A stretch of DNA of 63,953 nucleotides, filler included, from Collodictyon triciliatum (Eukaryota), in NCBI GenBank assembly GCA_043381765.1. It is 6 parts of 6 records of this genome, joined end to end, with 100 filler letters (N's around TTAATTAATTAA, not from the genome) between each part and the next. Parts side by side here need not be neighbours in the genome. Positions count along the whole stretch, not along the records: positions 1 to 8,917 come from JBHJMP010000546.1; positions 9,018 to 19,929 come from JBHJMP010000547.1; positions 20,030 to 34,347 come from JBHJMP010000548.1; positions 34,448 to 51,785 come from JBHJMP010000549.1; positions 51,886 to 59,935 come from JBHJMP010000552.1; 1 more part is not named here. The stretch is one strand, 5' to 3'. Below the pieces are notes generated by a model. That model did not search any database. It was not told the origin of the DNA and saw only the letters and a list, made by a program, of their open reading frames with translations. Below, in pieces: positions 1,106-54,819 of the stretch. The first letter of the stretch is position 1, and every line of letters starts with the position of its first letter. The translations under genes were made by a program, and so were the position numbers.

Positions 1106-1448
1106 TTAATTGGATATATGATTACCAGAAGAATTTATTTTTCAAAAAAAAAAATTCTCTTCAACACAAACGAAGCGTATCATTGAACAGAGTTATTACA
1201 GAATAAATCCACTCCCGCAGCTCCTTGTTGTGCCAGGAATGTGCTTTGATGTTGCAGTCCTTTTGTGAGTATTGGCCTCAATTTTCGGTGTGGCCTCGGT
1301 TCTTCAAAAGTTAAAACGCGTGAGACAATTACCAAATATATATATGTATGTAAATAAGTAAATTCCCTATTTAACATTCATTTGAGGGGTGAAATTTCAT
1401 CTTGATTCTTTATAGGAGTAAACGCCATTTTATCTTGATGTATCTCTC

Positions 1449-1478
1449 ACTTTGAATCGAATAAAGAGGAAAAAATGG
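1449..1478 (+). mobile_element. Micro-insertion family A, copy A1 (30 nt)
   Basis: ACTTTGAATCGAATAAAGAGGAAAAAATGG between TGATGTATCTCTC (1436-1448) and TGTTGTACCTCTC (1479-1491), 11/13 identical. Nearly identical to the copy at 2345. Confidence 0.75.
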
Positions 1479-2344
1479 TGTTGTACCTCTCGCGGTTGCT
1501 TGCTTGGTTCATTAGGGTGATGTAAGTGGTCTGTGTTAGCGGCGTCTTGAATCCAGGGACTATCGGCAGGGTTGAGCAGATGTTTTCTGATTCTGTATAG
1601 ATTGCGCCCTCCCAACCATAGAGCTTTGAAGACATTGTGTCGAATGAAGGGACTTTATATCTTGCAAGGATTGTGTCTGAAAATTGTAGCCTATACCCAA
1701 CCCACCAATTTTCTGACCCTAAACCAAAAGGCAAAGACGATAGTTCAGAGTAAAAGAAAGCGCATTTTTCCACTTTTGTGCTGAAACGAGTCTGGAGCAG
1801 CAAAGGTTTGGTTTAAGATTTTGTGGGAAATAAATAGATGTCGATTTTGGGTGTGATTTTTTTGCTGGGTATTTAAACCCGGTATGTCATTCGACTACAT
1901 CGCCACGCACGGTTAACCCAATCTACTCGTCGAGATTGTTCGCTGTGCGTAGTCATCAGTCGTGATTGATGTCTCTTGCTCTTGCTCTTGCGCATCTAAC
2001 CAGCAGATGCAGCCAAGTAGATCAGGCGCAGTGAGGTGATAGTGCAATCGCTGATCTGTTCGACTAAATGACCAAAGCATGGATGCGGCGGTGTTCTCTG
2101 TGTCGCTTGATAAGGCGTTGTTAATATTTATTCATGCTGTTGCGGCCAACTCAGTCATTCCCAGAAAAAAAAGCTTTAAAGTACCCCACATGGACGGGAT
2201 AGTTATATGTAGGATTGGGTTTGGTTGTTAGGAATCAAAGAGAAAAAATAAACTGGGAAGGGTGGCACGTCCTATTCGTTATTATTATTCCTTTCTATTT
2301 GTAAGGTGGTACGCCCTGATAATGTTTCAACACTGACTTCTTAT

Positions 2345-2374
2345 CCACTTTGAATCGAATAAAGGGGAAAAAAT
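2345..2374 (+). mobile_element. Micro-insertion family A, copy A2 (30 nt)
   Basis: CCACTTTGAATCGAATAAAGGGGAAAAAAT flanked by a perfect 13-bp direct repeat ACTGACTTCTTAT (2332-2344, 2375-2387). Confidence 0.85.
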
Positions 2375-2415
2375 ACTGACTTCTTATAGACTAGCTGATT
2401 TTCTTATCATTTTCA

Positions 2416-2932
2416 TCTTTATTTGAACCGCATTGAAAAAAAGGTATTCGTAAAGGTAAAGAGAAACGGGGTATACTGCAGATGGACATACGAGTAAGAT
2501 ATTAACGATGCTACTACCACAAAGAAATCAGCGATAGCGAGTTGGTCAAGTGGATTGCCGAACTGGTTGATTGGCTGTGCGGGTAGCAGGGGTTGGATGT
2601 GCTGTGGGAGATATCCCACGACACATTCCCACATCTCTCTTCGCTTGCGGTCAGAGTGGCGAAGAATGCGGGCGTATTTCAGCAGGCTGTTAAAAAAAAA
2701 AAGCTGTATTGCACGAGGCTTTCCAGCCTGGATACATCGATTTCTCGTTCGGGTGAATCATTGGAGCGAGAGAATGCGCGCACACTCCATAAGGACCACA
2801 GCATATGTCCCCTTGTGATTGTCCAGAGTATTCTGGAGTTGTGGGACATTGGTATTAGTGCACCAAATGGTACGTCAGACGCGCTGAGTGGGTTGGGTGC
2901 ATTATCAAGCCCAGAGAGCATCTTATGGGTGG
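2416..2932 (-). mobile_element. Possible 5'-truncated, frameshifted non-LTR retrotransposon (ORF2 C-terminus-like) fragment
   Basis: Intronless, GC-richer block encoding PLSASDVPFG...RILWTITRGHMLWSLWSVRA, resembling the W..W..R pattern after the zinc knuckle of L1/Tx1 ORF2. Frameshift at a T run (~2691-2703). Ends TTCAAATAAAGATGAAAA. Candidate TSD atcattttca (2406-2415) / attattttca (2933-2942). Confidence 0.4.
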
Positions 2933-2957
2933 ATTATTTTCACCCCTTCTTTCTCTA

Positions 2958-51720: not shown

Positions 51721-51785
<65 letters not shown>

Positions 51786-51829
51786 NNNNNNNNNNNNNNN
51801 NNNNNNNNNNNNNNNNNNNNNNNNNNNNN

Positions 51830-51841
51830 TTAATTAATTAA
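51830..51841. other. Artificial scaffold linker
   Basis: TTAATTAATTAA within N padding. Confidence 0.97.
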
Positions 51842-51885
51842 NNNNNNNNNNNNNNNNNNNNNNNNNNNNNNNNNNNNNNNNNNNN

Positions 51886-51929
<44 letters not shown>

Positions 51930-52111
51930 GAAAAAAAAATAAAGATATAAACATAAAACAATAATTATGTATTCGGTGAAACCCTTAATATTGATAAAGA
52001 GAAATTCGCGAGGATTCCACCCAAAATTATCATAAATACTTACATGGATTGTTCATGCAGTTAAATCCATAATCATATTTAAACCTCTTTCATACATTTA
52101 TATATCTAAAG

Positions 52112-54819
52112 CTCTCAGTTAGCAAGTACCATGGTCGGAACCCCTTACTACCTGAGCCCAGAGTTATGCGAGAATAAACCTTACAATGGTTATATCTTAA
52201 TTTATACTTTAAATATATTCTACATTAATTACAAAAACATATATATATATTTCGTATATATGCAAAATATTAGCTACTAATTAACAGTATCCATCGGGAC
52301 TTAATTTCACTTTTTTTTTTATTTGCCAATAAAATTACAGCAAAATCCGATGTATGGGCTCTGGGGTGTACATTATATGAACTTTGTACACTAAAGCATC
52401 CTTTTGATGCTACAAACCAGGGTGCATTAATTCTCAAGATTCTTCGAGGAAAGTAAAATTTTGGCGATTTTGTTTTCTATTTTCCCATGCATTCACGAAT
52501 TACCTTTACATTATCGTATTTTTCCTTTCCTATTTTGAAAATGAGGGGCAACTATTGAATTAATTATTGTGTGAATGATGTGTCAAATTCATTCTATAGA
52601 GAACCTGAATAACGCATGGAGTCGAACTCTCAATAATGATTCATATATCTTGATAGATATCCGCCAATAACAGGATACACCGCTGAATTGCGAAAATTTG
52701 TGGATGCATGCCTCACCAGAGACACTGGAGTTCGGCCAGATGCCAACCAAATCCTTTCTCATAGATATTCTGCAATGAAGGTGTACTGCCAGTTTTCATA
52801 TTCATCTTTTATTTTTATTTTTATTTTTTTTAAAAAAAAGGCCTCAATTGAAAGGCAATAGAGAATCAATTATTAGAAAACAAAGAAAAAACAAAGAAAA
52901 AACAAAGAAAAAACAAAGAAAAAACAAAGAAAAAACAAAGAAAAAACAAAGAAAAAACAAAGAAAAAACNNNNNNNNNNNNNNNNNNNNNNNNNNNNNNN
53001 NNNNNNNNNNNNNNNNNNNNNNNNNNNNNNNNNNNNNNNNNNNNNNNNNNNNNNNNNNNNNNNNNNNNNTAGAAAAGAAAAGAAAAGAAAAGAAAAGAAA
53101 AGAAAAGAAAAGAAAAGAAAAGAAAAGAAAAGAAAAGAAAAGAAAAGAAAAGAAAAGAAAAGAAAAGAAAAGAAAAGAAAAGAAAAGAAACGAACAAACA
53201 ATACAGCTAGTTCACAGAGAAGTCGGCCGAGTGTGCGAGATTTGGCATTGGCTGAAGCAGGTTGTTTACTTGTTCGGTAGCTATAAACCATAGTCTGTTA
53301 AAGTCTGAAAATGATACATCTATTTAGTTTGTTAATCAGATACCAAATAGCATATCGAGATGACATTGCGGCTGTTCAGAATTTGCCATCCTTCATGACA
53401 CCAACGTTTAATTCATTGCTATCAATCTTATTCTTATTATTGTTGTTATCTCGCACACCCATTCTCACCCAAACCACTTTTCTTTTATACTAATGAAAAT
53501 CTTTTAAATGCGCCCGTGCAATTAGAAGTATATCCCATACAGGAAAGCCAGAGGAGCTCCGCAGAAAAGAATGGAATTGTGGAGCAGAGGTATCTTTGAC
53601 AACCGATATTTTTTTCATCATTTATTCGATTCAAAATTCTTTGACAACCGAGATGTCATTCTCTCGACAACTTCGACATCATTCAATTATTGAAAATATT
53701 ATATTGGATTAACCTATGCTTCTACACATCCGATATTTCTTTGTCGTAATAGCCACTCGATTGCAATCAAGATCAAGATGATGATTCTGACGATTCCGAT
53801 GATAGCACAGATTCAAACCCATTTATGAACAAAAGTAAATCGAATTAAAAAAAAAGCACTCTAAAAAAGTATTAAAGATATCATTGAGGTAATGAAGAGA
53901 TATGATGTACATGGAGCAATGTCCACCCTATCGTAAACAATTTATGTAGCTTCTGATAAAATCACTTGGAAAATCGTCGACCGCTCTGGGTTGAACTCCC
54001 GAACTGAGTCGAGACCAGGGACATCATCAGCTTCTCGACAGATATCCCATGAGACCGATTATAGACAAATCAAATCGCCTCCATTAGGCAGCACTATATC
54101 TAGGTTGTCAACCGACGAAGAAGCCTTGGATGATGAAGCAGGGGATGAATCTATCGAGGTTGCTCTTATTTGACAGGATGTATGTAGTGTATTAGAACTT
54201 TCCCATTCTCTCGCGTTCGGTGGACTTCAATAATATAAACCCGATAAACGGCTAGAATCATGTGGAGAGATCTGTTGACGAAGAAGCCATGCGAATTCAC
54301 GAACTGGAAGGACTTATTCAGGTATCACGACGACTCTTGCATCTAAATATACCCTGTTTAGTACTTTATTTGATTTCGCACATTATCTTTTCACTTTTTT
54401 TCTTCTAATTTTCACTTCTCAAGAAATCATATATCTACCTTCCCTCCATCTTGTGCTAGGAAACAAAAGCTCAGGTGGTAGATGAAATTGGAAGTGAGAC
54501 GTTTGACCAGCTCTTTGGGTTCTTTAGGGGTAAGTTGTCTGGTGTAGAGCTTATTACTGAGTATCTATGTTTATATTGTTGCCTTATTCGCTTTTACTGT
54601 GCAACTTACATCGCAAATTGTATATATTATGCTCACCTACACCATTGAACTGTACTCCTGTCAGCTCGTGCCGAAGATAGTGCTGACGATGAGCCCAAAG
54701 ACGATGCAGACTCAGACAACGTTGTCCAGTATGTCCTAAGCTATATCCAGCCGGAGCAGATAGACATTATCCAAAAGATATACAGATTGGTTTATTTGGA
54801 AGAGCTCTTGTCCACGTAA
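52112..54819 (+). CDS. NIMA-related (NEK) protein kinase, 5' part missing
   Basis: [64 protein letters not shown]; acidic tail; ends VYLEELLST*. Confidence 0.92.
53607..53637 (-). mobile_element. Micro-insertion family A, copy A4 (31 nt)
   Basis: Minus strand ATTTTGAATCGAATAAATGATGAAAAAAATA flanked by a perfect 14-bp repeat TCTTTGACAACCGA (53593-53606, 53638-53651; 16/17 if extended). Confidence 0.85.

Follow-up and report, generated by a model that had tools for sequence, protein, structure and literature searches.

A stretch of 63,953 nucleotides of DNA from Collodictyon triciliatum (assembly GCA_043381765.1; the whole stretch is called the window) contains seven tiny retrocopies, which carry poly(A) tails, stand between target-site duplications and fall into two sequence families, A and B. 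The explanation that we favour, with a probability of about 0.6, is that they were produced by the machinery of long interspersed nuclear elements (LINEs), and that the antisense, donor-near pattern among those lying in genes would stem from differential survival, strand composition and the picking of cases. A preliminary description of the window had listed five of these micro-insertions with their duplications, had placed all five at splice sites and antisense to the host gene, and had suggested targeting coupled to splicing. The insertions and their coordinates are real; targeting finds no support beyond a small post hoc sample in which one of five junctions is verified, and a possible antisense remnant lies mid-intron. 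The window consists of six pieces joined artificially by linkers of 44 N, TTAATTAATTAA (a six-frame stop) and 44 N, at 8918-9017, 19930-20029, 34348-34447, 51786-51885 and 59936-60035, and neighbours across these linkers are not necessarily neighbours in the genome.

All seven tailed copies have the same layout, with a direct repeat of 13-16 bp, an insert ending in an A run, and the repeat again. Tails of A6-A8 stand at the 3' end of six copies, and the seventh, B2, has a decayed A-rich end. Family A inserts measure 29-31 nt. A1 (plus strand) is a 30-nt insert with an A6 tail at 1449-1478, between 13-bp repeats at 1436-1448 and 1479-1491 that match at 11 of 13 positions; A2 (plus strand) occupies 2345-2374, between exact 13-bp repeats (13/13) at 2332-2344 and 2375-2387; the diverged A3 (plus strand) lies at 21193-21221, between 16-bp repeats at 21177-21192 and 21222-21237 that match at 15 of 16 positions; and A4 (minus strand), 31 nt with an A7 tail, lies at 53607-53637, between exact 14-bp repeats at 53593-53606 and 53638-53651. 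A2 and A3 were not among the five described earlier. Family B inserts, all on the plus strand, measure 38, 49 and 63 nt. B1, with 63 nt and an A7 tail, is found at 3056-3118 between 16-bp repeats (14/16) at 3040-3055 and 3119-3134, next to a high-copy repeat that we call R. B2 is an old copy with soft boundaries at about 4327-4375, between repeats matching at 12 of 15 positions (4312-4326 and 4376-4390), and B3, 38 nt with an A8 tail, lies at 38317-38354 between exact 16-bp repeats (38301-38316 and 38355-38370) that span an exon/intron junction of an ABCG half-transporter gene.

Core sequences recur well beyond expectation, as a 19-mer of family A (up to three mismatches) matches the window three times against 0.05 expected, and a 21-mer of family B three times against 0.02. 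A short-word BLAST search of the window added A3 and two tail-less family A matches, namely an exact 16-nt match at 32369-32384 (plus strand) with no flanking repeat, and a 14-nt identity to A4 at 35922-35935 (plus strand), in the central part of ABCG intron 18 and antisense to the gene. The latter may be a decayed family A remnant or a chance match, and no flanking repeat was detectable around it. Among the target repeats, three are exact and three carry one or two mismatches; that of B2 is not significant, its score being equalled at 19% of 300 random places. A strict scan returned 13 candidate repeat pairs, with an A or T run in the retroposon arrangement in three and in two mirrored control arrangements in none, and a mismatch-tolerant scan, covering the plus strand and the part of the minus strand that includes A4, was swamped by microsatellites. 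Comparison reads consisted of contigs from freshwater-metagenome DNA runs mapped on the window; a search for related sequencing runs had returned four such runs, with a 0.05 share of words. One contig of 253 nt, identical to 2135-2387, carries A2 with both repeat copies, and no contig skipped A1, A2, B1 or B2, although cover is sparse and falls to zero over A1, so that these contigs are uninformative on empty sites. The single joint in them that runs from 3080 to 4346 proved to be a B-family copy from elsewhere.

Searches for further copies gave little. The family A pattern occurred at 14 loci in metagenome contigs, mostly by chance, with one locus (L025) and perhaps a second (L029) that are A-like with another base composition, and it had no match in viral contigs; the family B pattern had 20 matches in viral contigs, all of them in phage ribosome-binding-site contexts and attributable to chance. 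Within the window, an A-rich insert of 36 nt with AATAAAAGGGAAA is flanked by 13-nt repeats (11/13) at 13477-13538 and may be a decayed family A copy, with an equal score in 19% of random places. Two similar segments of about 35 nt, both with terminal A runs longer than 20 nt, stand about 100 nt apart at 40020-40198, between two ABCG genes, and may represent another tailed repeat.

A poly(A) end combined with a flush duplication is what target-primed reverse transcription by LINE-type machinery characteristically leaves. Under this explanation, families A and B would be dead-on-arrival retrocopies, each made of the last 22-55 nt and the poly(A) tail of one of two polyadenylated RNAs. A LINE-type (non-long-terminal-repeat, non-LTR) endonuclease and reverse transcriptase would act in trans at staggered nicks: the first nick would fall on the strand that finally carries the T run, where the tail could anneal and prime reverse transcription, synthesis would abort or be resolved after a few dozen nucleotides, and a second nick 13-16 bp away would give rise to the duplication. 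The lengths of the B copies (38, 49 and 63 nt) may reflect a series of 5' truncations, and family A carries AATAAA 3-5 nt ahead of its tail. For the source RNAs, we infer that family A derives from an RNA whose 3' end has this signal just before the tail, and that R probably supplied its own 3' end as family B. As events these micro-retrocopies are ordinary in kind, and it is their small size that is unusual.

The link between family B and R comes from other loci. R is located at 2521-2930 (perhaps 2420-3036), where the summed depth of metagenome contigs reaches 100-290, with many variants of 85-93% identity found in three freshwater metagenome runs, versus 2-10 for window-identical single-copy contigs. 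In one metagenome contig, a diverged copy of the R end is immediately followed by B, and the predicted protein P0002 reads in one frame through R sequence, then an A/T-rich part, B in antisense and lastly what stands to the left of B1 in the window. Since B-like sequence travels with R in other loci, B probably forms the 3' terminus of a poly(A) element of the R type. Searches of R for a reverse transcriptase or any other Pfam family found none, and its protein relatives are short predicted fragments only (P0002 and the P0123 cluster), including a 50-aa R fragment that clusters with eight further metagenome proteins (nine in total). The plus-strand frame of R recovered one fragment in one search and four matches in another, three of them spurious hits to low-complexity or repeat sequence (such as SprB repeats) and the fourth a 50-aa R fragment; the minus-strand frame had no relatives, and no R protein was confirmed in viral and prokaryote genome collections. 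Among the variants, 15 of 33 are synonymous in the plus frame, which slightly favours that frame, but an A11 run at 2694-2704 differs by 5 nt from other copies of R, a shift that merges the minus-strand frames in those copies, so that either strand may be the coding one. No duplication was found around the whole R-B unit. In the region 2395-2425 (minus strand), the minus-strand open reading frame (ORF) of R closes with a TAA inside AATAAA, and the following 17-23 nt resemble the end of family A; this likeness is weak, being equalled by 1.4% of random windows, and A2 sits 45 nt further on.

The firmest evidence on position concerns B3. The ABCG gene (34830-39832, minus strand) was mapped as 23 exon matches and 22 junctions on the homologue P0004, which together with P0003 is its closest relative found. 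Both proteins come from a freshwater protist transcriptome, and the identity of P0004 to the window gene, 44-93% per exon, suggests as its source a related lineage only. The match to P0004 residues 143-157 (93% identical) stops at 38364, and that to residues 158-203 resumes at 38207; a donor G at 38363 and an acceptor G at 38208 are the sole frame-keeping GT..AG solution between them, and the single best. The junction is thus verified by alignment, as a transcriptome-derived homologue reads unbroken across it. The duplication comprises the last seven exon nucleotides and the first nine of the intron (-7 to +9), so the insertion duplicated the donor, whose second copy has its G at 38309. Intron 7 (38208-38363, minus strand) now measures 156 nt and measured 102 nt before the insertion, within the range of 76-169 nt (median 129) of 21 mapped ABCG introns, a set in which one junction was corrected and a doubtful 308-nt solution left out. 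The second donor copy (38301-38316) lies 54 nt inside the intron, and its use would read into an in-frame stop (GTA TAG). The gene stands head to head with another ABCG half-transporter gene at about 41400-45500 (plus strand), and its own exons are pieces of 30-170 nt.

The other splice sites are putative. The positions of the repeats relative to the G residues named in the preliminary description hold in every case, at -7 to +9 for B3, -5 to +8 for A1, +4 to +17 for A4, +7 to +21 for B2, and 5 nt off for B1; whether these residues belong to splice sites is a matter of motif or frame for A4, A1 and B2. A4 lies on the downstream side of plus-strand exons of a recognisable NEK kinase, at a distance of 0.8 kb. 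Its putative donor GAG|GTATCT (G 53590) and acceptor AG at 53751-53752 would connect open frames that are in phase 0 on both sides, which makes the donor plausible on frame logic alone. The candidate donor of A1 is GAGAG|GTAC on the minus strand (G 1486), and that of B2 is CGA|GTATGT (G 4396), with an acceptor G at 4227, both read from the sequence only in the case of B2. On a donor weight matrix built from 20-21 ABCG sites, which discriminates poorly, these donors score 2.1 (A4), 3.2 (A1) and 4.6 (B2), and an equally good GT within 22 nt upstream on the given strand is found at 30%, 22% and about 13% of random sites, respectively, with 13% likewise for the donor of B3. The candidate host introns, once described as roughly 150-200 nt, come to 156-170 nt only with the insert, and to 102-118 nt beforehand.

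B1 raises a different difficulty. Its repeat lies 5 nt from a CT at 3033-3034, the putative acceptor AG of the opposite strand, on a flank that is high-copy repeat. As B1 adjoins R, which carries B elsewhere, it does not count as an independent case, and its acceptor is questionable; another metagenome copy of R has no AG at the matching place and shows a different 13-nt spacer. This absence also bears on an explanation without any positional biology, which we regard as possible though unlikely: copies would land wherever they are tolerated, the region at 1.4-4.4 kb would be a repeat-rich, weakly constrained patch and not introns, and the splice proximity of A1, B1 and B2 would be an artefact of seeking GT or AG near copies. 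Four of the seven copies, together with R, fall within this patch of 2955 nt (binomial p=0.0002), and the repeat of B2 is not distinguishable from background. Pfam scans, which were made throughout on open frames only (30 ORFs in total), found no family in nine frames between 1450 and 4300, including the ORF at 1450-1812 near A1, and two of the nine have no or fragmentary relatives; the sole match in that scan was a homeobox frame at 617-1105. Likewise, no Pfam family was found in the ORFs neighbouring A3. Against such an account, B3 sits on a verified donor, and A4 fits a phase-0/phase-0 junction downstream of the NEK kinase exons.

All five of the originally described copies are antisense to the proposed transcript, as had been claimed, but as a bias this amounts to just p=0.06 (two-sided). 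T runs of at least 4 nt number 38 on the sense and 21 on the antisense strand of 20 ABCG introns (9 versus 4 for runs of at least 6), and with this 1.8:1 sense excess as a prior the p value rises to 0.11. It had also been remarked that the T run faces the donor in donor-side cases. This holds, and it is a geometric outcome and no separate fact, since every antisense copy, read along the host strand, begins with its T run, which therefore always faces the donor and adds nothing to the orientation count. The suggestion that sense copies are selected against because of premature polyadenylation is plausible, given the AATAAA just before the tail of family A. In the explanation by LINE machinery and survival, sense copies would bring this signal into a compact genome and be removed, and the T-rich sense strands of introns would in addition favour priming events that yield antisense copies. 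An antisense copy would itself present a T run together with a pyrimidine tract and an AG, that is, a cryptic 3' splice site, which could compete with the real acceptor if located mid-intron and would be harmless only when too near the donor (within about 50 nt), leaving survivors near donors. On the host strand this AG ends at intron +39 in B3, +37 in A1 and +51 in B2. As +37 to +51 falls short of the smallest mapped intron (76 nt), a cryptic acceptor would be unusable there, and we infer that a selective filter of this kind can explain donor proximity.

Several findings weigh against this explanation. No reverse transcriptase or endonuclease gene is present among the 30 ORFs scanned in the window; as R also lacks a protein family, the enzyme is postulated from its products. 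The 5' ends of all four A copies fall within 3 nt of one another, where random 5' truncation predicts otherwise, and the flush 14/16 repeat of B1 is ill-fitting for B as a simple end of R. The step T^A followed by A-rich sequence is found on the nicked strand in just three of the seven copies (B3, TAGTTT^AAAACAAT; A3, TGAGTT^AAAATAAA; B1, ATTGAT^ATTTCAGG). Endonuclease-like TT^RAA sites do not account for donor proximity either, as 2 of 16 fall within +25 versus 3.2 expected, with no donor enrichment. Finally, insert starts on the host strand lie at +9 (A1), +10 (B3), +18 (A4) and +22 (B2), and a uniformly placed insertion would fall within +22 with p=0.175 in the 21 mapped introns, so that with all assignments accepted four of four donor-side inserts have p=0.0009, or p=0.0035 when the last 35 nt of the intron are excluded.

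The four nick sites that are not T^A, together with the very small size of the inserts, could point to endonuclease-independent capture, in which short complementary DNA or RNA 3' fragments would be patched into existing breaks during repair. Staggered enzymatic nicks yield regular duplications with tails at the priming end, and duplications of 13-16 bp occur in all seven copies, with tails always at that end, which makes capture very improbable.

The clustering of insert starts is the main argument for true targeting, in which the machinery would nick the non-template (sense) strand just downstream of 5' splice sites. In its strongest form, ultra-short poly(A) RNA ends would integrate preferentially 8-22 nt downstream of these sites, on the non-template strand, using intron starts as safe harbours, an idea that we consider quite unlikely. 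The route could be, for example, contact with a transcribing or splicing complex or exon-boundary chromatin, giving antisense landings at +8 to +22, and we hold it to be similarly improbable. The duplication spans the exon/intron junction in two of the four donor-side cases, and endonuclease-like motifs leave their donor proximity unexplained. Several points count against it. Only the donor of B3 is verified among the four, and the scores of the other three are matched by 13-30% of random sites. Counting B1 and the mid-intron remnant gives four of six (p=0.011, or p=0.034 with the last 35 nt excluded), B3 and A4 taken by themselves give two of two (p=0.03), and adding the remnant to them gives two of three (p=0.08). 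Near A2 and A3 there is no verified donor, the seven duplications show neither sequence relationship nor common motif, and the cases were chosen by eye. Donor clustering is suggestive, post hoc and mostly based on putative donors, and it is survival and case picking among LINE-made copies that we prefer as its cause.

The surrounding sequence has a G+C content of about 37% and 22 runs of N, including the five linkers. A-rich microsatellites, whose units measure 4-12 nt, abound across the window and adjoin most assembly gaps (examples at 4515-4800, 6386-6606, 9020-9390, 14070-14270, 34166-34347, 46830-47490, 52878-53207 and 59838-59935). At 6573-8831 (plus strand), a cytochrome b5 domain (Pfam E=6e-15) and, after it, histidine-box frames mark a gene for a front-end fatty-acid desaturase.

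The copies in this window indicate that retrocopies of 30-60 nt are recognisable by their duplications, and that an antisense copy beside a donor can be tolerated, even one that, like B3, duplicates the donor. This is not surprising, and it is of use in annotating repeats and cryptic splice signals in genomes with short introns. If donor clustering held genome-wide and were already present in young copies, it would represent a new kind of integration targeting and, if true, would give a handle on the persistence of mobile elements in gene-dense genomes.

Among known systems, short interspersed nuclear elements can be set aside, as no tRNA gene or Rfam family was detected in scans of the window and inserts of 29-63 nt are too short for an RNA polymerase III promoter or a head derived from tRNA, 7SL or 5S RNA. 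Site-specific non-LTR elements (R2, NeSL/SLACS and Tx1-type) recognise one conserved target sequence, and they would offer an analogy only if targeting were real, as the sites found here share no such sequence. Among the papers listed on splice-donor-associated non-LTR insertions, all concern mammalian, fly or chicken elements and none describes this pattern. B3 is reminiscent of introner elements in that its duplication contains a donor. Unlike them, it does not supply both splice sites: the insert and its duplication make up 54 of 156 nt, and the other 102 nt, which bear no relation to B, constitute an intron of normal size.

Surviving intronic copies of Alu are biased to the antisense orientation, and mammalian repeats are said to be depleted near splice sites. 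The survival filter proposed above follows the logic known for the exonisation of antisense Alu elements. The copies described here resemble intronic Alu in that antisense copies give the host transcript a T run and an AG, while sense copies bring poly(A) signals, and they differ from mammalian repeats in that a few cases adjoin donors. In one study, the candidate Alu exons that were kept are those antisense to Alu (PMC8460874, citing Lev-Maor 2003). With LINE-mediated retrocopies our copies share both a tail abutting the target and target-site duplications, variable in sequence, that lie directly against the two ends of the insert. Endonucleases of LINEs of the apurinic endonuclease (APE) type, such as L1, have a T-rich/A-rich nick consensus. 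Compared with the usually catalogued L1-type copies, those of the window are far shorter (29-63 nt), the 5' end of family A is nearly fixed, and no autonomous partner accompanies them in the window; like 5'-truncated L1-type inserts, they combine poly(A) with duplications of 13-16 bp; family B may in addition show a similar truncation, and A-rich sequence follows T at some nicks.

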